Assembly (NCBI GenBank): GCA_001189155.1
Contig: LFCP01000004.1
Location: forward strand, 133,618-197,617
Length of the DNA stretch: 64,000 nt
Origin: Parcubacteria bacterium C7867-006
GTDB taxonomy: Bacteria; Patescibacteriota; Minisyncoccia; Phycocordibacterales; DATDWN01
Direction: 5' to 3'
In this document: piece by piece, positions 3,264-39,797 of the stretch
Layout: each line of letters begins with the position of its first letter
How positions within the stretch are numbered: the stretch's first letter is position 1
Program-made: the position numbers and the translations under genes
The notes under the pieces: generated by a model
What the model saw: only the letters and a program-made list of their open reading frames with translations
Database searches by the model: none
What the model was told of the DNA's origin: nothing

Positions 3264-3449
3264 CTAGTTTGTAGAATCTACAATCACAGCATCCCAAGCA
3301 ATTTGCTTGACACGAGATGCAGAATTTATAGCACCTTGCTTAGAAACATAAGCTTCTGAAGCAGCAACTTTTTCGCCGTTTCCAGCAACTAGTCGCCATC
3401 GGTAATAACCTGCCGTGTCTTTGTAAATAACAAATATTGTTTTGTTCAT
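3264..3449 (-). CDS. DUF1508 (YegP-like) domain protein
   Basis: 61 aa; YKDTAGYYRWRLVAGNGEKVAASEAYVSKQGA is the typical YegP repeat. Confidence 0.55.
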   Translation of the reverse strand: MNKTIFVIYKDTAGYYRWRLVAGNGEKVAASEAYVSKQGAINSASRVKQIAWDAVIVDSTN

Positions 3450-3592
3450 ACAGTTTAATCTTGTTAACTCTAATAATGTTTAGGGACCGACCAGCGTAGA
3501 GCGCTCCCCGAATAAAAACCGAAATATTCAGTTTCTATTCGGGAGGTCTAGTGGCAGTGTGATCTAAACAAAAGAGAGGGGTCCAAGGTATA

Positions 3593-3607
3593 TCCTCGTC
3601 AGTTTTT
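3593..3607. repeat. Right arm of the 15-bp inverted repeat
   Basis: Pairs with 3236..3251. Confidence 0.5.
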
Positions 3608-3715
3608 CAAAGGCCTGTTTTGATAGAATTTTACACCTTCCCTTTTATGGTGTCTACTGTGATCCGGACGGGGGGTAAAGTGTGAACTACTTGTTATTTT
3701 TGTTAATATGGTCAC

Positions 3716-27956: not shown

Positions 27957-27990
27957 AAAAACAACCTCATAAAGAGGTTGTTTTTATTTG
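27957..27990 (+). terminator. Intrinsic terminator after murA
   Basis: aacaacctcataaagaggttgttttt. Confidence 0.6.
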
Positions 27991-28010
27991 GTGCCGGAGG
28001 AGGGACTCGA
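27991..28010. repeat. 20-nt direct repeat of the tRNA-Leu(CAA) 3' end (gtgccggaggagggactcga)
   Basis: Identical to 28137..28156 inside or next to the tRNA gene. Confidence 0.6.
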
Positions 28011-28076
28011 GTCTTACAGACTCAGTACTCCAATTGGATATTTTTTCAAAATATCTCAATCGGGTTTCGAGTCCTC
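28003..28076 (-). repeat. tRNA-linked structured repeat, copy E1 (outer stem GGACTCGA/TCGAGTCC)
   Basis: Shares GAGAT(A)TTTT...AAAAATATCCAA...TACTGA..CTGTAAG..TCGAGTC architecture with copies at 38840..38925 and 39233..39327. Confidence 0.5.
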
Positions 28077-28137
28077 ACGAAAGTCAAAACATGACTTTCT
28101 CTCCGGCATGCAAAAATCCCCTTTCGGGGATTTGTTG

Positions 28138-28219
28138 TGCCGGAGGAGGGACTCGAACCCTCACGCCTTGCGACACACGATTTTGAGTCGTGCGCGTATA
28201 CCAATTCCGCCACTCCGGC
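28138..28219 (-). tRNA. tRNA-Leu (anticodon CAA)
   Basis: Cloverleaf folded by hand: acceptor GCCGGAG/CTCCGGC, anticodon loop CTCAAAA, long variable arm, T-loop TTCGAGT. Confidence 0.8.
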
Positions 28220-28298
28220 ATAAAACCAATATAACATATTTTAATATAAAGTTCAGGGCCGACAAACACTAGCGCTTGTCGGACCCTGACTGCAGTCA

Positions 28299-28814
28299 TT
28301 ACCCCTTCTTCAGAACTAATCTTGGCAAATTCTGAGTAATGGGTAGAGACACAAGTGTCTTTGCTTTGTACAACCTGAAAGCTTCTTGGCGATTGCCATC
28401 AAGAAGATTCGAGATCCTTATGCCGAGTCTCGAAACAGCCTGAGGTTTCGCTTGGGTGGTCGAAGGATAGCACAGAAAGGTAGCATCGTCGTGCACAGGC
28501 TCTGCTCCATATCCAAGTGTACGCAAAGCAGTGCACAAACAGAATGCAAGCCTCTCAGCCCTAGCAAACACAGGGCTAGTTGCGTATCCAATTGGATGAA
28601 TTTCGTTCGCGAGCCAGACGATGCTGAAGTCATCTTTCAGCTTACCGTCAACCTTTCTCTTTGAGGCAACTTGCGCTGCGTTGAAGACCTTCTTCTCGAG
28701 CTTAAAATTCAGCTGGAGAGATGGTTGAAGTCGAAGCTTGTGCCACTCCTTCACTCCCACTTCAACAAACTTGTTCCATTCATCGCTACCAACTGCTCGC
28801 ACCCAGTATTTCAT
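28299..28814 (-). CDS. Hypothetical protein (GC-rich cassette G, adjacent to tRNA-Leu)
   Basis: 171-aa ORF in DNA of about 52% GC; no family recognised. Confidence 0.4.
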   Translation of the reverse strand: MKYWVRAVGSDEWNKFVEVGVKEWHKLRLQPSLQLNFKLEKKVFNAAQVASKRKVDGKLKDDFSIVWLANEIHPIGYATSPVFARAERLAFCLCTALRTLGYGAEPVHDDATFLCYPSTTQAKPQAVSRLGIRISNLLDGNRQEAFRLYKAKTLVSLPITQNLPRLVLKKG

Positions 28815-28868
28815 TTCGCAATCTCCTTGCCGAAATAACCTGTCCGTTGTACAGTTTGTCTTATTAAA

Positions 28869-29795
28869 ATGAAAAAATCAAGTTTTAAAAATAATCCAAT
28901 AAAACCTAAAATACTAGTTATCCTTGGTCCAACAGCCACAGGCAAAAGTGACCTAGCTGTTAAACTCGCTAAAAAATATAATGGTGAGATTATTTCTGCT
29001 GATTCAAGACAAGTATACAAAGGTTTAGATATCGGCACAGGAAAAATCACTAAAAAAGAGATGCTAGGGATTCCGCACTACATGCTAAACGTCATATCTC
29101 CTAAAAAAGTATTCTCTGTTTCTGATTTTCAAAAACTAGCTAATGCAAAAATAGAAGAAATAATTTCAAAAGGAAAACTCCCTATAATAGTTGGAGGAAC
29201 AGGATTCTATATTCAATCAATCGTAGATGGAATAGTTCTACCAGAAGTTCCTCCAAATAAAAAACTCAGAAAAGAATTAGAGAAAAAAAATATTGATGAG
29301 TTAGTTTTAATGCTAGAAAAAATTGATAAAGAAAGACTAAAAAATATAGATAAAAACAACCCTGTACGACTGATAAGAGCTATTGAAATAGCAGAAAAAC
29401 TTGGCTCTGTGCCAAAGATAAAAACACAAAAAAGTAACTATGATTTTATACAAATCGGTCTTAACCTCCCAGAGGGAGAAATAAAAGAAAAAATACACAA
29501 AAGACTCCTAGCAAGAATTAAAAAAGGAATGATGAAAGAAGCAGAGAAAATTCATAAAAATGGCTTATCCTGGAAACGTATGCGAGAACTAGGACTTGAG
29601 TATCGATACCTGGCAGATTTTCTGGAAAAAATAATAGACCAAAAAGAACTCATTAATAAACTAGATTCCGAGATATATCATTACAGCAAAAGACAGATGA
29701 CTTGGTTTAAAAAAGATAAAAAAATTAAATGGTTCAATCCAAAAAATTTATTAAATATAGAAAAATTTGTTAATAACTCATTGATTAATAACTAG
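28869..29795 (+). CDS. miaA: tRNA dimethylallyltransferase
   Basis: P-loop GPTATGKS and DSRQVYKGLDIGT. Confidence 0.85.
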   Translation: MKKSSFKNNPIKPKILVILGPTATGKSDLAVKLAKKYNGEIISADSRQVYKGLDIGTGKITKKEMLGIPHYMLNVISPKKVFSVSDFQKLANAKIEEIISKGKLPIIVGGTGFYIQSIVDGIVLPEVPPNKKLRKELEKKNIDELVLMLEKIDKERLKNIDKNNPVRLIRAIEIAEKLGSVPKIKTQKSNYDFIQIGLNLPEGEIKEKIHKRLLARIKKGMMKEAEKIHKNGLSWKRMRELGLEYRYLADFLEKIIDQKELINKLDSEIYHYSKRQMTWFKKDKKIKWFNPKNLLNIEKFVNNSLINN

Positions 29796-29827
29796 CAATA
29801 TAGTAAAAATAAAAAAGGAGGACCGAC

Positions 29828-29929
29828 ATGCTCGAGATCCTTGGTAAATCAGTTCTCGCTCTGGTAGCGTTCTGGCCATTCTGGGTTACTCCACTGGCGA
29901 TAGTCTTCGCCTGCAGGCGAACTCAGTAG
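29828..29929 (+). CDS. 33-aa hydrophobic peptide MLEILGKSVLALVAFWPFWVTPLAIVFACRRTQ (GC-rich mini-cassette H)
   Basis: Perfect AGGAGG RBS 6 nt upstream; GC-clamp terminator directly downstream; single TM helix. Confidence 0.35.
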   Translation: MLEILGKSVLALVAFWPFWVTPLAIVFACRRTQ

Positions 29930-29948
29930 AACGACTCCACAGTTGTAT

Positions 29949-29984
29949 GCCCCGTGACCTACCTAGGCACGGGGCACCGTTTTG
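29949..29984 (+). terminator. Intrinsic terminator GCCCCGTG...CACGGGGC-accgTTTT
   Basis: Read directly. Confidence 0.55.
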
Positions 29985-30021
29985 CCTAAAGGTAAAAAAT
30001 CCTGTAGGATTGAACAAATAA

Positions 30022-30092
30022 GGGGGGTTAGTTAAGTGGTATAACTACGGTCTCCAAAACCGTCGTCGGGAGTCCGATTCTTCCACCCCCCG
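30022..30092 (+). tRNA. tRNA-Trp (anticodon CCA)
   Basis: Acceptor GGGGGGT/ACCCCCC, anticodon loop CTCCAAA, T-arm GGGAG-TCCGATT-CTTCC. Confidence 0.75.
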
Positions 30093-30107
30093 CATATTTT
30101 TATAAAA

Positions 30108-30136
30108 CAAAAAACCGCTTGTAGCGGTTTTTTGTT
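30108..30136. terminator. Bidirectional terminator (aaaaccgct tgt agcggtttttt)
   Basis: The hairpin lies between converging tRNA-Trp and rpmG. Confidence 0.55.
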
Positions 30137-30313
30137 TTATTTCTTCACAGCTTTTAACGGGAATTTAACCTCACCAAAAACAACTCTCTTTCGAAGTTTC
30201 TTGTCATACTTCTTTAGGGAAATCTTCCTTTCAACTTTCCTCTTGTTTTTTCCAGTGAAATAAACTGATCCAGTTTCTTTGTTTGATATTGGTATTAATC
30301 TGTCTTGTGACAT
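30137..30313 (-). CDS. rpmG: 50S ribosomal protein L33 (bL33); not in the ORF track
   Basis: 58 aa: MSQDRLIPISNKETGSVYFTGKNKRKVERKISLKKYDKKLRKRVVFGEVKFPLKAVKK fits the bL33 pattern (YxTxKNKR...LxLKKYDxxLRKxVxFxExK). Confidence 0.7.
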   Translation of the reverse strand: MSQDRLIPISNKETGSVYFTGKNKRKVERKISLKKYDKKLRKRVVFGEVKFPLKAVKK

Positions 30314-30419
30314 AGTTTTAATAAATTACCAGAAAAGAGACTAAAATGCAAGGTTTATAAAGTAAAAAGCCGTCCGAGTAAAAGTAACCTCGGACAGGCC
30401 TTTCACTCTTGGACAGACT

Positions 30420-30626
30420 TCAGAATTCGAAGATTGGACGCGGGATGAGGATCTGCTCTGTTCCAGCGACCCTCATAGAGATGTGCTTTTCACCACCACA
30501 GTGTCGAAAGACGACAACACCGCGAGTGTTGTCTGGGTCGTTCTGCACATAAACGACAGTGCAGTTGTTGACCTTGTCACCAACTTGAAGCGAGCTCCAC
30601 TGATCGCTGGACATCTCGTTAGACAT
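30420..30626 (-). CDS. Hypothetical protein (GC-rich cassette I, between tRNA-Tyr and rpmG)
   Basis: 68 aa starting MSNEMSSDQ; GGAGG RBS 5 nt upstream, a TTGACT box upstream and a GC hairpin terminator downstream (about 30340..30400). Confidence 0.4.
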   Translation of the reverse strand: MSNEMSSDQWSSLQVGDKVNNCTVVYVQNDPDNTRGVVVFRHCGGEKHISMRVAGTEQILIPRPIFEF

Positions 30627-30710
30627 CGCGGCCTCCAAAATTGTTCCAACTATTATGTTAGTTCTAAAAAAGTTACTAGTCAACAAAAATCCCCTTGCGG
30701 GGAATCTTTG

Positions 30711-30793
30711 TGCGTAGGGAGGGATTCGAACCCCCGTAGGCCGAAGCCGAGAGATTTACAGTCTCTTGTAATTGACCACTCTACCACCTACGC
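30711..30793 (-). tRNA. tRNA-Tyr (anticodon GTA)
   Basis: Acceptor GCGTAGG/CCTACGC, anticodon loop CTGTAAA, long variable arm, T-loop TTCGAAT. Confidence 0.75.
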
Positions 30794-31165
30794 AATCTTA
30801 TATTTAACGTATTTACTAGTCTCGATACTTATTTCATTTCTTGATTCTACTTCAGCCCATGGCAAATCATACATTTGCCCTTTTTGAGTAAAAATAAATA
30901 ACCTATCAAATGAATTTTTATCGTATTTCTTGGAATAACTGAAAGATTGATTTCCCCCTGTTATTCTGAGACCGACTTTACAGGTTTTGCTATTACTATA
31001 AAGTCCTGCGTATTTTACTTGAACTTTGGACAAAAGTCCATTTTTTTCAATTATCAAATCATAATCTCTTTTATCACCAATAGGCAAACACACTTCATAA
31101 CCAGAAGTTATATAATGTCTTATAGCATTACCAACTGCTATATCTCCTTTACTTTTGGTATTCAC
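30788..31165 (-). CDS. PD-(D/E)xK endonuclease family protein (PDDEXK_5 / group-I-intron-associated type)
   Basis: TKSKGDIAVGNAI...GYEVCLPIGDKRDYDLIIEKNG...KVQVK motif pattern; the stop overlaps the tRNA-Tyr 5' end by a few nt. Confidence 0.4.
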   Translation of the reverse strand: MNTKSKGDIAVGNAIRHYITSGYEVCLPIGDKRDYDLIIEKNGLLSKVQVKYAGLYSNSKTCKVGLRITGGNQSFSYSKKYDKNSFDRLFIFTQKGQMYDLPWAEVESRNEISIETSKYVKYKIA

Positions 31166-31200
31166 AACTAGATTATAACAGAGTATTAGTCTGTCATCAA

Positions 31201-33876
31201 TTAGGCCAATGCATTTTCGTTTACAAAACCATCAGTTACAAACGAGCCATTCTTTCCCTTCTTTACATTAAACACGAACTCACTACCCTTCATATCAACA
31301 GTAATAGAACCACCTTTTGATATTCCCTTACTTACCATAAGTGATGCAATAGGAGTCAAAATCTTTGACTGTATAAGTCTCTTTAGAGGTCTTGCACCGT
31401 ACTGTGGGTTATAACCTTCTTTAGATAGATGCTCCATAACAGAGTTTGAGAGAGTTAATTTTATTTCTTTCTGCTCAAGTCTTTCTTTAACAATATCAAC
31501 TTGGATTTTAACAATCTGGGCTATTGCTTCTTTACTCAAAATATCAAAAACAATAATATCATCTAACCTATTCAAAAACTCTGGTCGGAAGTGATCTTTC
31601 AGTGCCTCCATTACTTTTGATTTCGCTTCTTCATAGTTTGCCTTCTCTGTTCTTTCTGAAGCAAAACCAATTTTCTCCATTTTATCTATATACCTAGCAC
31701 CAATGTTTGATGTCAGAATGATTACAGTATTTCTGAAATTAACAACTCTACCCTTACTATCTGTAAGTTTACCGTTATCTAGAACTTGTAGAAGAATATT
31801 GAAAACTTCTGGATGAGCTTTTTCTATCTCATCAAAAAGAATAACTGAATATGGTCTATGTCGAACCATCTCTGTTAGATTTCCACCTTCTTCATGACCA
31901 ACATATCCTGGAGGAGCACCGATAATTTTTGAAACACTGTGTTTCTCCATAAACTCTGACATATCAACTCTTATAAGAGCCTTGTCGTCATCAAACAAAA
32001 ACTGCGCTAGAGCTTTTGTTAACTCTGTTTTTCCAACTCCAGTTGGACCTAGGAACAAGAATGAGCCAATAGGTCTGTTTGGGTCTGAAATACCAGCACG
32101 ACTTCTTTTGATTGTATCTGATATTTTCTGAACAGCCTCTTCTTGTCCAACAATTCTGTTTTTCAAAACCTCATCCATTCTATTTAGTTTATCTGCCTCC
32201 TCCTCAAGCATCCGGCTAACAGGAATACCTGTCCATTTTGAAACAATGGTTGCAATATCATTTTCTGTAATTTCTTCTTTCAAAATTCTTCTTGAACTCT
32301 GAAGCTTCTTTAATCTTTTTGATTTTGTATCCAAATCTTTTTCTAGACCTGGAATTTTTCCATAACGTATTTCGGCTGCACGAGAAAGATCTGCTCTAGC
32401 TTCTGCAGTCTCTGCTTCTCGTCTCAATTCCTCTAGTTGTTTTTTAATAGCTTTAATATCTGATACAGTCTCTTTCTCATTGTTCCATTTAAGTTCTATT
32501 TCAGATATTTCTTCCTTCAAATCTGCAATTTCTTTTTCAATCTCTTTAAATCTAGCTTTTGATTTAGGATCAGTCTCTTTTTTTAGAGCCTCATGTTCTA
32601 TTTGTAGTTTAACTATTTTTGAGTGAGCAGTCTGAAGAACTGGAGGTTTGTTCTCCATTGCAATTTTCAAATATGAAGCAGACTCATCAATAAGATCTAC
32701 AGCCTTATCAGGAAGAAATCTATCAGAAATATATCTCGAACTTAGATTTACAGCAGCGACAATAGCCTCATCGGTTATGTGAACACCATGATAAAGCTCA
32801 TATTTTTCTTTTAGTCCTCTCAAAATAGTGATGGCGTCATCAATACTTGGCTCATTAACATAAACAGGTTGGAATCTTCTAGTTAAAGCGGGATCTTTTT
32901 CAATATGTTTTTGGTATTCTTTCAAAGTCGTTGCACCAATAGCTCGAAGTTCCCCCCTAGCGAGAGCTGGCTTTAACATATTTGATGCATCTAGAGATCC
33001 TTCTGCTGATCCAGCCCCAACAATAGTATGAATTTCATCGACAAAAAGAATTATTTTCCCATCAGATCTTTCTATTTCTTTTAGTATGTTCTTCAATCTC
33101 TCTTCAAACTCACCTCTGTATTTTGTTCCTGCAATAAGTAATCCTAAATCCAAAGAAACAAGCTCTTTGTCGCGCAATGACTCTGGAACTTCTCCCATAG
33201 ACATTCTGATAGCTAGACCTTCTACAATAGCTGTTTTTCCAACTCCAGCCTCACCAATAAGAATAGGATTGTTTTTTGTTCGTCGAGAAAGAATTTGAAC
33301 TATTCGTCCGATTTCGTCATCGCGTCCAATAACAGGGTCTAGTTTATTTAACTGAGCCAGTTTTGTTAAACTTCTTGTGTATTTTGATAGAGCTTTAAAC
33401 TTTTTTGGACTATCAGTCTCAACTGTTTTTGTTTTTCTGATATCTTCAATAACTCTCAAAACAGTATCTTTATCAATTTTAAATTTCTTTAATAAATCTT
33501 TTGCTACACTCGGAACCTCAGTTAAGGCTAGGAAAAGATGTTCTGTTGAAACAAACTCGTCATTCAAAATAGATGTTTGCTTACCTGAGTTCTCTATTGT
33601 TTGTGCTAACTCTGGAGTTAGATATATCTGGTATGAAGCAGACAAAGTCTGACCAGGATCACTACCCTCGATACCCTCAAGAAGAGAGTCTGTCATAAGA
33701 ATTGTATCAACCTCTAATTTTTCTAAAATAGAATTAACCACACTCTCCTCCTGTAGAATAAGAGCTGTTAGAAGATGAAGTGGATTAACGTGATTCTGAC
33801 CACGTTCAATAGCTAGCTCATGAGCCTTTCGTATTGCTTCCTTTGCTTTAGTTGTAAAGTTATTAAATGGTTGCAT
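31201..33876 (-). CDS. clpB: ATP-dependent chaperone ClpB
   Basis: Two AAA+ modules ([11 protein letters not shown] and [14 protein letters not shown]) and a middle coiled coil. Confidence 0.9.
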
Positions 33877-33941
33877 AAATATGCTTATTTTGGCCTATTA
33901 TATTACATTTTTGGCTAAAGTCAATGTAACCTAAATCAGAA

Positions 33942-34784
33942 TTATTGAGCTTTTGAAGCCTCATTTAGAGTAGAAAGTTCCTTCTTCAAAATCGATACTG
34001 GGACGAAAACTTTTGACGCATCAGATGATAGTTTAAAACCAATTACATCTCCAGAGAGGTTGAAGGCTGGACTTCCATCTACCAAATCTTTTATAGAAAT
34101 ATCTGTATTAATTCCTGATAGATACTTTATAGTACTTGTTCCAACGCCGGATTCTTTCATATCTAAAGATATTACTCTACCAACAGCAATTGCATTTGTG
34201 TCATTACCACCCAAAGCAATAATTGTTTGTCCCAGTTTAGGATCTGAATCTCCCAGAACAGCTGGTGAAAACGGGTAAGATGTTTTATCTGTTACTTTTT
34301 CTCCTTGATTAGCTTTAAATAATATAAAATTTGTTTGTTTATCTACTCCCATAGGAATAAGAGGAAATTCTTTACCGTCACTCATTGTAACAGTATAAAC
34401 ATTACCAGCTGGGAGATATTTCCTATCAGCTGCGATAACACCGTCTTTTGTCAGAACCAAACCTATACCGTAAAAACTAACTGTACCAACATTTCCATCT
34501 TTTTCTTTTATTCTCACAATACTTTTTAGGTTTTTATTTATTGAATCAACAATCAAATCCTCTTCTTTAACAACAACAGTTGTGACCTCTTTCTGTCCAG
34601 ATGTTGTAACAGCCGCAGGAGTAACTGTCTCAATAGTTTTTTCTACAATTCTATTTATGTTTCTTGTTACTTCAATAGGAGTCTCTTGCAAAAGAGAAGT
34701 TGTCATAATTCCAGTAGCAATAGATGTAACAAAGCTAATAAGTAGAGTCAAAAGAATGATTTGATTTTTATTTAGATCTTCCAT
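33942..34784 (-). CDS. Trypsin-like (S1/HtrA-like) peptidase domain protein, membrane-anchored
   Basis: N-terminal TM plus a chymotrypsin-fold-like region; the catalytic Ser motif looks degenerate (VDGSPAF). Confidence 0.45.
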   Translation of the reverse strand: MEDLNKNQIILLTLLISFVTSIATGIMTTSLLQETPIEVTRNINRIVEKTIETVTPAAVTTSGQKEVTTVVVKEEDLIVDSINKNLKSIVRIKEKDGNVGTVSFYGIGLVLTKDGVIAADRKYLPAGNVYTVTMSDGKEFPLIPMGVDKQTNFILFKANQGEKVTDKTSYPFSPAVLGDSDPKLGQTIIALGGNDTNAIAVGRVISLDMKESGVGTSTIKYLSGINTDISIKDLVDGSPAFNLSGDVIGFKLSSDASKVFVPVSILKKELSTLNEASKAQ

Positions 34785-34811
34785 TTGTGATTATAATAAC
34801 ATAACTAATTA

Positions 34812-35993
34812 TTATTTGATAACTTTCTTCAACACTTTTATTAAATAATCTATATCTGATTTTTTAGTTCCCCGACCCATAGTAAATCTTAAACTTGATA
34901 GGCTACAATTCTCTTTACCTATATTGGATATAACGTAAGAAGATGAATCTTCTTTCAAAGTTCGACAAGAAGAAGAATACGATGCACACACACCATTAAC
35001 ATCCAGAGATATAACAGAGAACTCAGCGTCCAATCCATGGAAACAAATGTTTAAATTATTAGGTAATCTATTTTTGTGAGAGCCATTTAGTGAGGCTTTT
35101 GGGAAAATCTCTAAAATATTTTTTATCCCGTAATCACGAATTAATTCTAATCTTTTGCTTTCTCTTTCCCTTTCTGAAGTCACTATCTCGAGAGCTTTTG
35201 CTAATCCCACAACATTAGAAATATTTTCTGTACCACTTCGCAGACCCTTCTCCTGACCGCCACCAAAAACTATTGGTTTTATTTTTACATCACCTCTAAC
35301 ATATAGAAATCCAGAACCTCTTGGGCCGTAAATTTTTATTCCATCAACAGTCATCAAATCCACTCCGAGTCTTAAAACATTCATATCCAAATATGATGGT
35401 GCCTGACAAGCATCTGTATGGAAATAAGGCAGTATAGTATTTTTACTTTTTCTAAACTCCCTTATAACTTTTGAAATCTCGTTTATAGGTTGTATTGTTC
35501 CTATCTCGTTGTTTGCGTACATGACAGAAACTAAAACAGTATTCTCTCTCAAAACTTCTTTAATTGATTTTGGAGAAACTATTCCATCTTCACCAACCGG
35601 AACAATAGTTACTTCACCACCCCTATTTTCTATTTCTTTAAAAACTTCCAAAACAGCAGGGTGCTCTATCGTTGTAGTTACAAAATGCTGAGTAAATCCA
35701 TTTTTTCTATTAGCTTCAAACACTCCCAATATAGCCAGGTTGTTACTCTCTGTTCCCCCACTAGTAAAAACAATATCCTCTTTCTGTGAACTAATTATGT
35801 TTGCTATCTTTTTTCTTGCAGAAGACAACTCTTCCTTTGCTAAAATAGACTCAGAATACAGAGCTGATGGGTTAAAATATAGACTTGTCTTTTTTTTATT
35901 TATCTCAAACTCCACTTCTTTTAAAATTGGTGTCGTTGATGCATAATCCAAAAAAACTCGTTTTTTAGGCAAAAAATTACTTAAAAATGTCAT
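34812..35993 (-). CDS. Cysteine desulfurase (class V aminotransferase, NifS/IscS-like)
   Basis: PLP-lysine region and FTSGGTESNN; start chosen at MTFLSNFLPKK. Confidence 0.75.
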   Translation of the reverse strand: MTFLSNFLPKKRVFLDYASTTPILKEVEFEINKKKTSLYFNPSALYSESILAKEELSSARKKIANIISSQKEDIVFTSGGTESNNLAILGVFEANRKNGFTQHFVTTTIEHPAVLEVFKEIENRGGEVTIVPVGEDGIVSPKSIKEVLRENTVLVSVMYANNEIGTIQPINEISKVIREFRKSKNTILPYFHTDACQAPSYLDMNVLRLGVDLMTVDGIKIYGPRGSGFLYVRGDVKIKPIVFGGGQEKGLRSGTENISNVVGLAKALEIVTSERERESKRLELIRDYGIKNILEIFPKASLNGSHKNRLPNNLNICFHGLDAEFSVISLDVNGVCASYSSSCRTLKEDSSSYVISNIGKENCSLSSLRFTMGRGTKKSDIDYLIKVLKKVIK

Positions 35994-36049
35994 AACTTTA
36001 TAATACAGAGTCTTTTGCAAAATACAACAAAATGTAGTATAGTTGCGAA

Positions 36050-36520
36050 ATGATTTTTGATCCATTATATATCACATACGGTCTAATAGCCCTAGTAGTG
36101 ATACTTGTTGGATGGAATCTGAGACTAGAGATAAAAATCAAAAAACTCCTTATCGGAAAGGATGCGAAATCGTTAGAGGACTCTATTGTAAGTGCAAAAG
36201 ATAATCTAGAGAAACTTAATACTTTCCAAAAGGAATCTTCTTTGTACTTTAGAAATATTGAAAAGAGACTCAATCGAAGCCTACAGTCAGTAGAAACTAT
36301 AAGATTTAACCCCTTCAAAGGCACTGGTGATGGAGGTAACCAAAGCTTTTCAACATCTTTTCTTTCAGAAAATGGTGATGGAGTAGTAATATCGAGCCTC
36401 TATTCTAGAGACAGAGTTAGCGTATTTTCAAAACCATTGAACAAGTTTGAAAGTAGTTTTGAACTTACAGAAGAAGAAAAAGAAGTCATAAAAAATTCGA
36501 AATCTCAACTTTCACAATAA
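36050..36520 (+). CDS. DUF4446-like protein
   Basis: N-terminal TM; RFNPFKGTGDGGNQSFS...GDGVVISSLYSRDRV pattern. Confidence 0.45.
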   Translation: MIFDPLYITYGLIALVVILVGWNLRLEIKIKKLLIGKDAKSLEDSIVSAKDNLEKLNTFQKESSLYFRNIEKRLNRSLQSVETIRFNPFKGTGDGGNQSFSTSFLSENGDGVVISSLYSRDRVSVFSKPLNKFESSFELTEEEKEVIKNSKSQLSQ

Positions 36521-36558
36521 AACTAAAGCTCAGTTTATGAACTTAATCATTTACTACC

Positions 36559-38085
36559 ATGCAAACAACAAAAACAATAGAAGCGAAAGCTACGGTAGAA
36601 CGATCACCTGTGGTAGCAATAATGGGTCACATAGACCATGGTAAGTCCACTCTCCTTTCATATATAAGAAAAAGTAAAGAACCTCTCAACGAAGCTGGCG
36701 GAATCACTCAGCATATTTCTGCATACGAAGTTGAACACGAAACAAAAGAAGGTAAAAAACAAACCATTACTTTTATAGATACACCGGGACACGAGGCTTT
36801 TGGTGGTATTAGAAAAAGAGGGGCTTCTGTTGCAGATGTGGCTGTTTTGGTTGTTTCTGCTGAAGATGGAGTAAAACCTCAAACCATAGAAGCTCTAAAC
36901 TCAATAAAAGACAGTCACACTCCATATGTTGTTGCTATAAATAAAATAGATAAACCAGAAGCAAACATAGATAGAACAAAACAAAGTCTAGCTGAAAATG
37001 AAATCTATGTGGAAGGTTGGGGTGGAGATATTCCTGTTGTTGCTTTGTCAGCAAAAACAGGAGAAGGAGTTCCAGAACTTCTAGATATGATAATTCTAGT
37101 TGCAGAACTAGAAAATCTAACTGGAGACAGAAACACTCTAGCAGAGGGTATTGTTATAGAGAGCAACAGAGATACAAAAAAAGGTATTACGGCAACTTGT
37201 ATAATAAAAAATGGATCAATGGAAAAAGGTATGTTTATTGTCAGTGGAGTTGCTATTGCCCCAGTCAGAATAATGGAAAACTATCTTGGAAAACAGATAG
37301 ACAAAGCTTCTTTCTCTAGCCCAATAAGAATTATCGGCTGGGATGAACTACCTATTGTGGGAAATAGATTCCAAGTTTTTGACGACAGAAACAAAGCAAG
37401 GGAAGCTGTTGAAGCAGAAAAAGAAAAAATCGCAAATAAAAAATCTGCAGAAAATAGTCCTGAAAACTTTAGTAATGAAATAATCATAATACCTGTTTTG
37501 GTTAAAGCAGATACAGGAAGTAGTCTTGAAGCTGCAATAAATCAAATCAAAAAACTGGGTACTGAAACAGTAAAACCTCAAGTTGTTGCCTCTGGTATTG
37601 GAACCATATCAGAAAATGATATTCGACTAGCGAGTGGAACAGAGAAAGCTGTAATCATAGGCTTTAATGTAAAAGTAGACTCCCCTGCAAAAAACCTTGC
37701 AGAAAGAAGCGAAATAGAAATAAAGACTTTTGATATTATCTACAAAATGACAGAGTGGTTAGAAGAATTAATAAAAACAAAAACTCCAAAAATAAAAGTA
37801 GAAGAAATCACTGGTAGAGCAAAAGTACTAAAAGTATTTAGTAAATTAAAAGATAAACAAATTCTTGGTGGAAGAGTCGAAACAGGAAAAATAACTCTCG
37901 GATCACAAGTAAAAATAAAAAGGCGAGATTCTGAAATAGGTGAAGGAAAAGTTAGAGAACTTCAGCAACAAAAAAATGCTACTGAAGAAGTCCGTGAAGG
38001 AAGTGAATTTGGAGCGATGATTGTCTCAAATATAGAGATAGCTCCTGGAGACCACATAGAATGCATAATAGTAACAGAACAATAA
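36559..38085 (+). CDS. infB: Translation initiation factor IF-2 (short form)
   Basis: G-domain GHIDHGKST...DTPGH...NKID. Confidence 0.85.
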   Translation: MQTTKTIEAKATVERSPVVAIMGHIDHGKSTLLSYIRKSKEPLNEAGGITQHISAYEVEHETKEGKKQTITFIDTPGHEAFGGIRKRGASVADVAVLVVSAEDGVKPQTIEALNSIKDSHTPYVVAINKIDKPEANIDRTKQSLAENEIYVEGWGGDIPVVALSAKTGEGVPELLDMIILVAELENLTGDRNTLAEGIVIESNRDTKKGITATCIIKNGSMEKGMFIVSGVAIAPVRIMENYLGKQIDKASFSSPIRIIGWDELPIVGNRFQVFDDRNKAREAVEAEKEKIANKKSAENSPENFSNEIIIIPVLVKADTGSSLEAAINQIKKLGTETVKPQVVASGIGTISENDIRLASGTEKAVIIGFNVKVDSPAKNLAERSEIEIKTFDIIYKMTEWLEELIKTKTPKIKVEEITGRAKVLKVFSKLKDKQILGGRVETGKITLGSQVKIKRRDSEIGEGKVRELQQQKNATEEVREGSEFGAMIVSNIEIAPGDHIECIIVTEQ

Positions 38086-38086
38086 T

Positions 38087-38416
38087 ATGAGCACACGAGA
38101 TGATAGAATAAAAGAAATATTAAGAGACTTGGGAGCACGTTTTTTGCTTATAAATGGAAATGGTTCATCACTTATTACTGTTACAAATGTAGAATTAACA
38201 AGTCGTGGTAAAAATGCTACTATCTTCTTTACAGTCTTTCCAGTTGAATTTGAAAAGACCGCACTTGAGTTCGCAAAGAGAAAACGTAGTGAATTCAAGG
38301 AGTTTGTAATGGATAATTCAAAATTAGGTCGTATTCCTCAACTTGATTTTGAAATAGATACAGGAGAAAAAAATAGACAAAAAATTGACTCTCTCCTTGG
38401 TCAGCAAATAAAATAA
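38087..38416 (+). CDS. rbfA: Ribosome-binding factor A
   Basis: Small KH-like protein directly after infB. Confidence 0.7.
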   Translation: MSTRDDRIKEILRDLGARFLLINGNGSSLITVTNVELTSRGKNATIFFTVFPVEFEKTALEFAKRKRSEFKEFVMDNSKLGRIPQLDFEIDTGEKNRQKIDSLLGQQIK

Positions 38417-38488
38417 GGCGTAGTGGCCAAGTGGTAAGGCAAAGATCTGCAAAATCTTTATACGGCGGTTCGATTCCGCCCTACGCCT
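38417..38488 (+). tRNA. tRNA-Cys (anticodon GCA)
   Basis: Acceptor GGCGTAG/CTACGCC, anticodon loop CTGCAAA, T-loop TTCGATT. Confidence 0.75.
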
Positions 38489-38549
38489 CCCGAAAAAAGC
38501 AAAGCTTTTTAGCGGAATTGGGCCAATTTAGGTCATTCAAATAAATATT

Positions 38550-38634
38550 GCCCGGATGGCGGAACTGGTATACGCGCACGACTTAAAATCGTGTCTCGAA
38601 AGGGATGTGGGTTCGATTCCCACTCTGGGCACCA
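38550..38634 (+). tRNA. tRNA-Leu (anticodon TAA), CCA encoded
   Basis: Acceptor GCCCGGA/TCTGGGC, anticodon loop CTTAAAA, long variable arm. Confidence 0.8.
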
Positions 38635-38761
38635 GAAGAAAAACGGAGTTTTTTGAGTGGGAATCGAACAGATTTCCGGTTTACAAATTCAATAGAATTT
38701 GTCGGAAATTTGCGTTTTTAATTTTATTGAGTGGCGACGAAATAAAATTAAAAAAGATTAC

Positions 38762-38775
38762 CCCACTCTGGGCAC
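38762..38775. repeat. Direct repeat of the tRNA-Leu(TAA) 3' end (cccactctgggcac)
   Basis: Matches 38619..38632. It is embedded in a 21-bp perfect hairpin CTCTGGGCACAATAAAACTCC/GGAGTTTTATTGTGCCCAGAG. Confidence 0.55.
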
Positions 38776-38839
38776 AATAAAACTCCGTAAGGAGTTTTAT
38801 TGTGCCCAGAGAGTAAAGCTATGTTATAATTTTACGTTT

Positions 38840-38925
38840 GGAATCGAAGCCCGATTGAGATTTTTTATGATTTTAAGAAACAAAAAATCCAATTAGGGTA
38901 CTGATCCTGTAAGGATCGAATACCC
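38840..38925 (+). repeat. tRNA-linked structured repeat, copy E2
   Basis: Same architecture as E1 and E3; contains the exact 24-mer gggtactgatcctgtaaggatcga (38896..38919), which is also present at 39299..39322. Confidence 0.5.
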
Positions 38926-38933
38926 AAACTTTG

Positions 38934-39006
38934 TGCACCCACCAGGGATCGAACCTGGGACCTTATCCTTAAGAGGGATCTGCTCTACCAGCTGAGCTAT
39001 AGGTGC
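38934..39006 (-). tRNA. tRNA-Lys (anticodon CTT)
   Basis: Acceptor GCACCTA/TGGGTGC (one G-U pair), D-arm GCTC/GAGC, anticodon loop CTCTTAA, T-loop TTCGATC. Confidence 0.7.
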
Positions 39007-39084
39007 AATTCGTACATATTACCTGATATTTATGGTAATTTCAATATTTTTAAGAATATGTTATAGTTCTCGTGTGATAAATAC

Positions 39085-39166
39085 GGGCAAGTGGCGGAAT
39101 TGGTATACGCGCTAGTCTTAGGAACTAGTTCCTCACGGATTGGGAGTTCGAGTCTCCCCTTGCCCA
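39085..39166 (+). tRNA. tRNA-Leu (anticodon TAG)
   Basis: Acceptor GGGCAAG/CTTGCCC, anticodon loop CTTAGGA, long variable arm. Confidence 0.8.
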
Positions 39167-39232
39167 CAAACAACAAACACCGAAAGGTGTTTTTGTTTTG
39201 GGACAAGGAGAAAAGTCTGGGAGACTTTTCGT

Positions 39233-39327
39233 GGAGACTCGAAGCCTGTTTGAGATATTTTGGGAGTTATGAAATTACGAACAAAAATATCCAAACATGG
39301 GTACTGATCCTGTAAGGATCGAGTCTC
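39233..39327 (+). repeat. tRNA-linked structured repeat, copy E3 (outer stem GGAGACTCGA/TCGAGTCTC)
   Basis: It is followed by two partial direct copies of the tRNA-Leu(TAG) 3' end at 39398..39411 and 39426..39440. Confidence 0.5.
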
Positions 39328-39494
39328 TAATGAAAATTTTGAGTCGCGGACGAGTCTCCTAAAAATGGAACTCATGTACAGAAACTGTAAGTTTCGAGAT
39401 TCTCCCCTTGCTAATTATTCCTGACCGAGTCTCCCCTTACCCCCCCACTTGACAGATACCACATAATGTATTACTGTACAACGCAGGAGCACCT

Positions 39495-39707
39495 ATGACA
39501 CACAACGAGATTGTCACTCTGATGAGGAGCAGTCGCTCTCCAGAGGAGTGGAAAAGCAATGAGGAGAGAGTGAAAGCTCACTTCTCTGGAAGTCTACCCT
39601 CTTTCTGGTACGGACTGATCGTTCAGTCCGAGGTGGCCAAGAAAACAAAAGCTTCATGGCCAAAACCACGACCCACACAACCCAAACGGCCGAGCCTGTG
39701 CCGCTGA
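39495..39707 (+). CDS. Hypothetical protein (GC-rich cassette J)
   Basis: 70 aa; AGGAG RBS 5 nt upstream, TTGACA box upstream, terminator at 39764..39797. Confidence 0.4.
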   Translation: MTHNEIVTLMRSSRSPEEWKSNEERVKAHFSGSLPSFWYGLIVQSEVAKKTKASWPKPRPTQPKRPSLCR

Positions 39708-39763
39708 CACACCGAGCCGCCGAGTTCCGAGAGGAACCCGGCGCTTTCTTATTTTTTTGAATA

Positions 39764-39797
39764 AACAAAAACCACTTGTAAAAGTGGTTTTTGTTTA
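39764..39797 (+). terminator. Intrinsic terminator (aaaaaccactt gtaa aagtggttttt)
   Basis: Read directly. Confidence 0.55.

Follow-up and report, generated by a model that had tools for sequence, protein, structure and literature searches.

A covarying non-coding element family matched to its host genes at tRNA and tmRNA 3' ends in Patescibacteria

Three hairpin-rich repeats (E1, E2 and E3), found next to tRNA-Leu genes in a 64,000-nucleotide stretch of Parcubacteria bacterium C7867-006 (contig LFCP01000004.1, positions 133,618 to 197,617; hereafter the window), are members of a large Patescibacteria-wide family of structured, non-coding elements of ∼120–150 nt that are located 3' of tRNA and transfer-messenger RNA (tmRNA) genes. 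The family shows covariation, it is tied to the 3' ends of these genes, and each copy is matched to its host gene in both orientations. With a probability of roughly 45%, and hence tentatively, we understand the element as an insertion module of the non-autonomous kind: it would integrate at the 3' end of a tRNA, restore that end, and be under selection in the form of a folded single strand. The mechanism of insertion, the folding as RNA rather than as single-stranded DNA (ssDNA), and the benefit or cost to the host are what we infer from the patterns described here.

The family is apparently undescribed. Rfam 15 gave no match over E1–E3 at the gathering threshold, and at E ≤ 5 only weak chance matches overlapped the region; ARAGORN and the Rfam tRNA model found only nine true tRNAs in the window and none at E1–E3, even at E ≤ 5. 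An Rfam scan of 15 related loci returned tRNA, tmRNA, group I intron and c-di-GMP-II only, none of them placed on the element. Full-text searches of the literature found no description of the element, and a 2026 paper dealing with group I introns in Patescibacteria tRNAs leaves it unmentioned (PMC13011429).

A conserved scaffold with arms matched to the host gene

An exact-pattern scan for the 22-nt core motif GTACTGANNCTGTAAGNNTCGA, run on one genome per species, placed the motif in at least 119 contigs besides the source (loci designated L001–L119 in the following). A covariance model built from 27 copies recovered 131 copies from the window and 99 of the loci and another 32 from the remaining loci, giving 163. 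An earlier note, made from the sequence of the window, had considered a structured family tied to tRNA genes as one explanation of the repeats, and the copies found elsewhere, together with the strong covariation described below, uphold it. Informative titles among the matches listed all refer to Patescibacteria (Saccharibacteria, Paceibacterota/Parcubacteria, Nomura-, Taylor-, Kaiser-, Lloyd- and Zambryskibacteria, Minisyncoccia), except for one label: L112 (contig JBLHQB010000019.1), with covariance-model matches of 64 and 49 bits, is assigned to Patiriisocius sp. (Bacteroidota), which is probably due to mis-binning or may represent a rare occurrence outside Patescibacteria. Phage origin was rejected: two motif matches in viral contigs are due to chance, one of them overlapping a tRNA-Trp on the opposite strand, and neither coincides with a covariance-model match.

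Single-sequence folds and the consensus fold of 27 homologues gave the same architecture. The element, usually preceded by a terminator-like hairpin, begins with UG-N' and a 7-nt Watson–Crick complement of the tRNA acceptor 3' strand, continues with AG, a conserved hairpin (H1) and CGU, and then presents a segment complementary to the T-stem 3' strand and the entire T-loop (N'N'UCGAA). There follows a three-way-junction cap composed of GAAR, hairpin H2 with variable tip, GUACU and hairpin H3 (GANNC-UGUAA-GNNUC), and the element closes with a direct copy that extends from the T-loop of the tRNA to its discriminator. In the predicted fold, the two complementary segments pair with this direct copy, so that the acceptor and T stems of the host are assembled into a long stem as a perfect duplex. 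The outer stem P1 is predicted to form from the acceptor-strand complement and the copy of the acceptor 3' strand, while the long stem P3, which closes the three-way junction, has the T-stem 5' strand and anti-T-loop paired with the T-loop and T-stem 3' strand. The conserved part is a five-helix structure of ∼120 nt with a junction, which is why an intrinsic terminator was dismissed as explanation of the conservation. Self-cleaving ribozymes (hammerhead, twister, hairpin) were likewise dismissed, their strand order and conserved nucleotides not fitting on inspection by eye and Rfam being in agreement.

The 3' arm corresponds to the T-loop-to-discriminator segment of the upstream gene, with up to 23 of 23 nt identical, and the 12 nt comprising the 3' strands of T stem and acceptor are the same in 28 of 86 parsed pairs. 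The dinucleotide ahead of the 5' UCGA (the anti-T-loop) follows host T-loop positions 59–60. Particularly informative are 21 acceptor positions at which the tRNA has a wobble or mismatch: the element 5' strand is there Watson–Crick complementary to the tRNA 3' strand in 20 cases and equal to the tRNA 5' strand in none. Because 20 complements are found as compared to 0 copies, the 5' arm is understood as the complement of the 3' strand and contains no relic of the tRNA 5' half. The result, along with phylum-wide conservation of the intervening modules, contradicts the decay of a local tRNA duplication, which the earlier note had named as a possible sole source of the similarity. G3-U70 has become A3-U70 in the three scored copies that go with tRNA-Ala and in the one that goes with the tmRNA. 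The latter copy (L001, 3102–3243, minus strand) comes after the tmRNA at 3278–3644 (minus strand) and repeats its 3' end TTCGACTCCCAGCATCTCCAC, the 5' strand GGAGATG providing A-U instead of the G3-U70 expected from the tmRNA acceptor. Charging by alanyl-tRNA synthetase (AlaRS) is therefore excluded. Moreover, the 5' flank of the element (UG-N') often pairs with N73-C-A, leaving the acceptor-like end fully paired.

Several tRNA-based explanations were considered and rejected on these grounds. An aminoacylatable tRNA mimic does not agree with the loss of G3-U70 and with the pairing of the NCCA end by the 5' flank in many copies. A decoding tRNA of odd shape is not consistent with the H1 loops, which are CUGC, UGGGA or GNRA-like and of 4–5 nt, there being no 7-nt anticodon loop and no tracking of the amino acid. 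A tRNA in the sense of RF00005 or ARAGORN fails in that a single hairpin replaces the D and anticodon arms and the T-loop is not free.

Covariation was computed for 32 pairs on the 131-sequence covariance-model alignment, which is fitted to the model. Standard pairs occupy 92% of the alignment cells (62% in shuffles), double changes occur at 30 of the 32 pairs, and the covariation score of 0.66 compares with 0.16 for shuffles and 0.03–0.10 for slid controls. Covariation, which the earlier note had proposed as a check on its idea of a structured family, is thus clearly seen. H1, H2 and H3, which contain no tRNA-derived sequence, are 94–98% paired with up to four Watson–Crick pair types per position. 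Compensatory change in H3 can be followed between copies of closest resemblance, from E2 of the window (GATCC/GGATC) to the Leu-TAA element of L087 (GGTCC/GGACC), and from E3 (GATCC/GGATC) to the element of L019 (GAACC/GGTTC). The structure is under selection. On the sense strand of H1–H3, 50 G-T compare with 29 A-C in the model-fitted alignment (p = 0.02), an excess that modestly favours sense-strand RNA. Covariation above controls and a sense-strand bias are generic features of structured RNA, and the element, a putative transcript, shows both. For the complete transcript that read-through from the tRNA would give, the predicted lowest-energy fold is a domain-swapped one, in which the distal repeat is joined by the 5' half of the tRNA and the inverted copy by the proximal repeat; it resembles a tRNA that has a rod-like insert of ∼190 nt in the T-loop.

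The physical linkage to tRNA genes is tight. A same-strand tRNA ends ≤250 nt upstream in 102 of the 131 copies (median gap, 34.5 nt), with element and tRNA always on the same strand, and most other copies lie at contig edges, after the tmRNA host (L001), after an intron-bearing tRNA (L074) or behind accessory DNA inserted upstream. The host tRNAs represent 15 amino-acid types. The connection to tRNA-Leu made in the earlier note therefore stands for the window, whereas specificity for tRNA-Leu is ruled out by the 15 types and the tmRNA; nor does the H2 subtype follow the amino acid. In L087 and L076, an element is present on each of four successive tRNAs. Across the sampled loci, 18 of 56 non-index tRNAs have a detectable copy, as do 3 of 9 tRNAs in the window, and several seemingly empty tRNAs carry divergent copies. 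As a side observation, most tRNA genes in L001–L119 and the window lack an encoded CCA, and C, usually CA, is found directly after the discriminator (+1 identical in 83–89% of comparisons).

Variants point to a modular superfamily. One subclass has a 2-nt AT insert in the P3 3' strand. Another (L002, L014, L018, L024, L026, L030, L032, L039, L042, L043, L046, L057, L084, L085, L101, L106 and others) carries a 14-nt mini-hairpin insert AAGCGUACUCGCGG at the same point in P3, between T-loop positions 59 and 60, with the GUACU motif repeated. A second cap variant reads GAAAG, H2, ACCYG and H3 as GCGA-YGUAR-UCGC. What we call second-type elements (window 38635–38780, L040, L078) combine a core of two hairpins, the second with loop GAGUGGCGACGAA, with a frame made up of an acceptor complement overlapping the tRNA CCA, AG, a small hairpin, an inverted T arm and a direct repeat (T-stem 3' and acceptor 3' strands). 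Core subtype varies among the copies of one locus or genome (e.g., L087 and L076), identity being limited to tandem duplicates.

Proposed insertion at tRNA 3' ends and its alternatives

In the proposed scenario, the module would integrate into a tRNA gene at its T-loop/3' end, bringing with it a substitute for that end and, in most cases, a terminator. The tRNA would thereby stay intact, its old end being displaced downstream to become the direct repeat. Later entries would stack new units beside the tRNA, distal units would decay, and recombination between repeats would duplicate or remove units. Selection would act on the folded single strand, most likely on sense-strand RNA arising from read-through of the tRNA gene. 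The earlier note had thought of tRNA-targeting elements, and repeated entry at tRNA 3' ends fits the tandem, nested and truncated copies that we observe, whereas the notion of a tRNA-Leu-specific scar does not hold. Identical tandem units are present in L012 and L098. In the window, a nested second-type unit separates tRNA-Leu(TAA) from an older tRNA-end repeat, a terminator and E2, the 3' arm of which is decayed; distal to E3, a solitary repeat comes after a truncated copy. Where units stand in tandem, the one closest to the tRNA has the higher score in five cases, an equal score in one and the lower score in two.

Several observations weigh against insertion. The scenario leaves unexplained the matching of both arms to 15 tRNA types and tmRNA; indeed, no reading considered in this study, be it insertion, host RNA, ssDNA or scar, accounts for the tailoring of both arms to the individual tRNA. 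The repeat ends at N73/C74, with trailer identity beyond it at background level, and this fits a functional boundary as well as a target duplication. A repeat extending into the trailer, which would prove target duplication at the level of DNA, was not seen overall; it is confined to tandem copies, as in L012 and L098. The conservation of orthologous copies, with their compensatory changes, is just as compatible with a function for the host. Near-identical cores were not found at different tRNAs of one genome, there being no sign of recent intragenomic spread. Integrase, transposase and reverse transcriptase are absent from the 25 top Pfam families listed for 150 neighbouring open reading frames (ORFs), and these families are of housekeeping type; the lack of integrase and transposase likewise speaks against the association with cassettes elsewhere that the earlier note had envisaged. 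Lastly, a hairpin with T-tract exists in 39 of 87 spacers, a terminator-like hairpin lies behind the element in 38 of 128 cases, and no promoter belonging to E1–E3 was found in the window. Transcription would therefore depend on read-through.

An alternative that we regard as rather unlikely has the element as a non-coding companion RNA of the host, co-transcribed with the tRNA and handled by the tRNA-end enzymes (RNase P, RNase Z, exonucleases), for which it could serve as processing handle, decoy or sensor. It would be inherited vertically, and its match to the tRNA would be kept by selection and gene conversion. The strand-specific conservation of the unpaired motifs AG, CGU, GAAR, GUACU and UGUAA, together with the strong covariation and the sense-strand excess of G-T over A-C, agrees with such a role. 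The same can be said of the invariably shared strand of element and tRNA, of the direct copy stopping exactly at the discriminator/C74, of orthologous copies conserved with compensatory changes, and of the housekeeping gene neighbours. The tRNA-like design, with H1 in the place of the D/anticodon arm and the acceptor stacked on the T stem, would also be suitable. However, the T-loop is taken up by pairing and a tRNA elbow is thus missing; the frequent pairing of N73-C-A by the 5' flank leaves no free acceptor end; and the G3-U70 of tRNA-Ala and tmRNA is always turned into A-U, with AlaRS charging excluded as a result. The companion RNA is further called into question by its patchy occurrence at about one third of the tRNAs, by the decay of outer stems in many copies, including E2 and E3, and by terminator-like hairpins upstream in ∼45% of cases.

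Less probable again is that the folded strand is the ssDNA form of a miniature integrative circle, with the long stem as attachment site for a recombinase encoded elsewhere and the cap and H1 as the parts recognized by protein. tRNA and tmRNA genes are classical targets of integration. The order of tRNA end, spacer, inverted copy, cap and old tRNA end is that expected from the integration of a circle of ∼160–190 nt, the arms are perfectly Watson–Crick paired with G-T rare (∼2% in H1–H3), and units occur in tandem and nested form. Furthermore, in 61 of 89 pairs the acceptor 3' strand, N73, CA, trailer, spacer hairpin and element 5' strand make up a continuous hairpin (median, 20 bp), the longest perfect one extending over 30 bp. 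Long perfect terminators are nevertheless normal in these genomes: element-less tRNAs feature A-tract/U-tract palindromes of up to ∼20 bp, none of which reaches the acceptor strand. The palindromes are thus weakened as proof of templating at the DNA level, and what is specific to the element is the reach into the acceptor strand. Against the circle, in addition, are the orientation bound to tRNA transcription and the G-T over A-C bias of the sense strand, which points to RNA; linkage to a recombinase was not found beside the 150 elements sampled, and neither a circle nor an empty site was observed.

A related proposal, which we consider highly improbable, is that the integrated arrangement represents a copy, longer than one unit, of a small circular replicon or circular RNA of rod-like shape, the unit being ∼160–190 nt. 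Such a unit would comprise the tRNA end (T-loop to N73), the trailer/terminator hairpin, the inverted copy with H1, and the cap, and the proximal and distal tRNA-end copies would constitute its terminal redundancy. A tRNA 3'-end enzyme would cut both copies alike, for example after N73, and so free one unit, in which UG-N' and the acceptor complement would bridge the N73/CA junction to give a nicked duplex ligatable to a circle. If true, bacteria would have an equivalent of the tRNA-intron circles, or a viroid-like rod of which the genome contains a copy.

The elements of the window and their surroundings

The window contains nine tRNA genes, three of them tRNA-Leu (CAA, TAA, TAG). One core motif GTACTGANNCTGTAAGNNTCGA is found 3' of each tRNA-Leu on the strand of the tRNA (28007–28028, minus; 38898–38919, plus; 39301–39322, plus), and a fourth copy with one mismatch is at 39376–39397. 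These four matches compare with 0.09 expected, and four or more were reached in 0 of 100 shuffles. A second motif TCGAARCCYGWTTGAGAT is present in E1, E2 and E3, and the 24-mer GGGTACTGATCCTGTAAGGATCGA is without difference between E2 and E3, just as the earlier note had reported. The three repeats themselves were recovered above chance at or near the positions it had given, with fold z-scores of −8.4 (E1), −3.8 (E3) and −3.2 (E2) and covariance-model scores of 99.2 (E = 3e-23), 76.9 and 73.3 bits, in the same order. The inverted T-arm copy and the direct copy of the tRNA end were confirmed as well. Inverted copies match at 11 of 11 positions in E3 (39233–39243 vs 39147–39157), and at 92% both in E2 (38840–38851 vs 38609–38620) and in E1 (28063–28074 vs 28149–28160); the direct repeat of E1 (27991–28010 vs 28137–28156, the tRNA-Leu(CAA) 3' end) is 20 of 20. 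As regards unit length, the core described earlier is correct, whereas its extent of ∼75–95 nt is too short. Alignment of the three tRNA-Leu downstream regions has the conserved unit start earlier, at the acceptor-3'-strand complement, followed by AG, H1 and CGU, so that the units are ∼120–136 nt. Only E1 is intact; E2 and E3 retain P3 and the junction, having lost the 3' acceptor copy/outer acceptor-like stem.

E1 (27989–28108, minus strand; cmsearch, fold and the 20/20 repeat) is hosted by tRNA-Leu(CAA) at 28137–28219 (minus strand; ARAGORN, and 61 bits with the Rfam tRNA model). The interval between them contains a terminator-like spacer hairpin, CCCC-GAAA-GGGG with U-tract (28111–28131, minus strand), that was read from the sequence, a simple terminator scan having given no call. 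In order of transcription, all on the minus strand, E1 is composed of the acceptor-5'-strand complement GCCGGAG (28101–28107), AG (28099–28100), H1 (28080–28098), CGU (28077–28079), the T-stem 5' strand with anti-T-loop GAGGACTCGAA (28066–28076), H2 (28030–28064), GUACU (28024–28028), H3 (28009–28023) and the direct tRNA copy from T-loop to discriminator plus CCA, GAGTCCCTCCTCCGGCACCA (27989–28008). Its 3' end is CTCCGGC-ACCA, after which there is a terminator common to E1 and murA. The repeat at 27991–28010, noted earlier as an additional one, is real in its sequence and is E1's own 3' end.

At tRNA-Leu(TAA) (38550–38634, plus strand; ARAGORN and Rfam), host of both a second-type element and E2, the former comes first (38635–38780, plus strand). 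It has the same frame and a different core, recognized by its repeats (inverted 15/15, direct 89%) and by the same core in L040 and L078. It consists of the inverted copy GAGTGGGAATCGAAC (38655–38669), hairpins at 38669–38712 and 38715–38754, the latter with loop GAGTGGCGACGAA, and the direct repeat CCCACTCTGGGCACA (38762–38776), all on the plus strand; at 38762–38780 it is 89% identical to 38619–38637. The repeat reported previously at 38762–38775 is therefore present, and it is reassigned to the 3' end of this second, different element. A perfect palindrome of 21 bp (38766–38811, plus strand) then runs from the acceptor 3' strand, discriminator and CA of the old tRNA end through the terminator to the E2 5' strand. 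E2 (38805–38938, plus strand; cmsearch, fold) presents, on the plus strand, the 5' strand GCCCAGAG (38804–38811), a weak, AT-rich H1 (38814–38834), CGU with TTGGAATCGAA (38835–38848), H2 (38850–38898), GUACU (38898–38902), H3 (38903–38917) and a degenerate 3' arm (38918–38933) abutting tRNA-Lys (38933–39006, minus strand). A 12-nt repeat is shared between the weak H1 of E2 (TATGTTATAATT, 38820–38831) and a site just upstream of tRNA-Leu(TAG) (TATGTTATAGTT, 39057–39068), at the place where a promoter is expected; the former copy contains TGTTATAAT, resembling an extended −10 box, and E2 may thus have promoter-like sequence in place of a proper H1. The D-arm sequence GCGGAATTGG of tRNA-Leu (38559–38568 and 39094–39103) recurs in the Cys–Leu spacer at 38512–38521, possibly as a remnant of the 5' half of a tRNA-Leu.

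tRNA-Leu(TAG) (39085–39167, plus strand; ARAGORN and Rfam), the host of E3, is followed by a terminator-like palindrome (39167–39200, plus strand; stem 39175–39192 and T-tract). E3 (39202–39337, plus strand; cmsearch, fold) is made up of the 5' strand GGGACAAGGAG (39200–39210), H1 (39211–39229), CGU with GGAGACTCGAA (39230–39243), H2 (39245–39300), GUACU (39301–39305), H3 (39306–39320) and the 3' arm GAGTCTCT (39321–39328), all on the plus strand, with the remainder of the tRNA-end copy lost. Beyond it lies the truncated, diverged fourth copy (39361–39413, plus strand; repeats of 70% and 76%, the motif with one mismatch) comprising the H2 3' half, GUACA, H3 as GAAAC-TGTAA-GTTTC and a decayed tRNA-end copy. 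The tRNA 3' end (39149–39165) is repeated at 39397–39413 (76%) and at 39426–39442 (94%). The repeat at 39398–39411 in the earlier description is accordingly present and belongs to the truncated copy, while the solitary repeat at 39426–39443 (plus strand; 16/18) has a GC-rich block directly after it.

The neighbours of the elements in the window, murA, miaA, infB and rbfA, are housekeeping genes. Two GC-rich blocks, 28250–28850 and 39440–39780, stand out with GC of 0.44–0.58 from a background of ∼0.35, and Pfam gave no match for their ORFs (171, 79, 70 and 84 aa). The second block starts directly after the last repeat of the tRNA-Leu(TAG) end; the first is on the 5' side of tRNA-Leu(CAA), away from E1. 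Accessory DNA occurs at other loci, with genes of ORFan, defence-like or mobile-element-like character. L084 (4284–7330) has a 2.8 kb block of GC-rich ORFans between tRNA-Glu and a displaced element, flanked by a 9-bp repeat GGGTCACAA; in L042 (637–2416) a defence-like ATPase (AAA_21/OLD-like) and in L079 (1–1434) an XRE plus ImmA/IrrE pair precede an element without adjacent tRNA; and in L045 (6135–7512) a 185-aa ORFan is situated between two elements downstream of tRNA-Tyr. Given the GC-rich block after the repeat and the accessory genes at other loci, tRNA ends are places where foreign DNA gets into these genomes. The element, however, forms no cassette border itself, as most copies are among housekeeping genes. 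The cassette-border idea of the earlier note consequently fails as a rule, with a limited element of truth at some loci (L042, L079, L084) and for the GC-rich block after 39426–39443.

These same loci are among the arguments for regarding the repeats as passive leftovers, that is, as attachment (att) scars of larger islands or as decaying tRNA-Leu duplications without structure-dependent role. Islands at the tRNA ends in L084, L042 and L079, the GC-rich block after the last repeat past E3, and the partial decay of E2 and E3 are what could be expected. Phylum-wide conservation of the cap, covariation in H1, H2 and H3, the occurrence at 15 tRNA types and tmRNA, and most copies being island-free among housekeeping genes are not, and the 5' arms complement the tRNA 3' strand rather than copy the tRNA 5' half. 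The covariation and the complement test contradict the leftover explanation, to which we give hardly any credence.

Known systems and biological meaning

As a presumed insertion module, the element invites comparison with islands and prophages that target tRNA and tmRNA genes. There too the site extends from the T-loop onward, the gene end is restored, the old end is displaced as a direct repeat, and successive events lead to arrays of partial tRNA ends. The direct repeat typical of att sites is found with the element (20/20 in E1, up to 23/23 elsewhere, 12 nt identical in 28/86 pairs). Unlike islands and prophages, the element is ∼130 nt, has no ORF and no integrase found nearby; it also carries an inverted, Watson–Crick-perfect copy of the target, and it shows covariation not expected of duplex att arms. 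In being small, non-coding, hairpin-forming, non-autonomous and present in multiple copies per genome, it is similar to miniature inverted-repeat transposable elements (MITEs), REP/BIME, Correia and RPE elements, and the IS200/IS605-derived PATEs. Unlike in MITEs, its arms are rewritten for each host tRNA in place of terminal inverted repeats that stay constant, what is repeated is the T-loop-to-N73 segment (∼20 nt) instead of a short fixed target-site duplication, copies within a genome differ, and there is the strict tie to tRNA/tmRNA 3' ends.

There exist analogies also to structured RNA and ssDNA. With tRNA-like domains (tmRNA, YrlA Y RNAs, viral 3' structures, mascRNA) the element shares an acceptor-like stem on a T-stem-like stem, one arm in place of D and anticodon arms, and a position adjoining or following a structured RNA gene. 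It differs in that a three-way junction takes the place of the paired T-loop, so that an elbow is lacking, the acceptor end is often fully paired, G3-U70 is lost, each element mimics a different tRNA, and there is no Rfam match. CTX phage attP(+) and integron attC likewise involve a folded single strand in which inverted segments rebuild a target-like duplex, with structure conserved more than sequence. In the element, however, the target is a tRNA end and not dif or attI, and both arms stay adjacent after integration; the likeness is one of geometry only (perfect arms, continuous rod), and the strand bias points to RNA. Finally, the predicted fold of a tRNA with a rod insert of ∼190 nt is reminiscent of tRNA introns and their circles (archaeal and eukaryotic tricRNAs, group I introns), and Patescibacteria tRNA genes are known to carry group I introns as intervening RNAs (PMC13011429). 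The proximal repeat of the element, in distinction, already completes the tRNA, so that no splicing is needed. The element is no group I intron (no Rfam match), lacks a bulge-helix-bulge motif and is located at the T-loop/3' end, not at 35/36. Group I introns as such were noticed in L074 (6333–6647, minus strand) and L024 (6967–7192, minus strand). The intron of L074 interrupts the tRNA immediately 5' of an element with arms corresponding to a 3' end of the tRNA-Asn type, in agreement with the introns at 35/36 published for tRNA-Asn and tRNA-Asp of Patescibacteria (PMC13011429).

If our interpretation is true, an uncatalogued structured companion belongs to about a third of the tRNA genes in those Patescibacteria genomes that have the element, and to at least one tmRNA gene, each companion being matched to the 3' end of its own tRNA. 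The design is unusual: segments of a conserved scaffold alternate with arms taken from the target in both orientations, and it is not accounted for by any known system of insertion, guide RNA or tRNA mimicry. In practical terms, the covariance model can be used in the annotation of Patescibacteria genomes, and the family provides a warning against taking partial tRNA repeats for the borders of islands. More broadly, the finding bears on the formation and protection of tRNA 3' ends in minimal, largely uncultivated bacteria, on the spread of small non-coding elements that have no enzymes of their own, and on tRNA ends as hot spots of gene gain.

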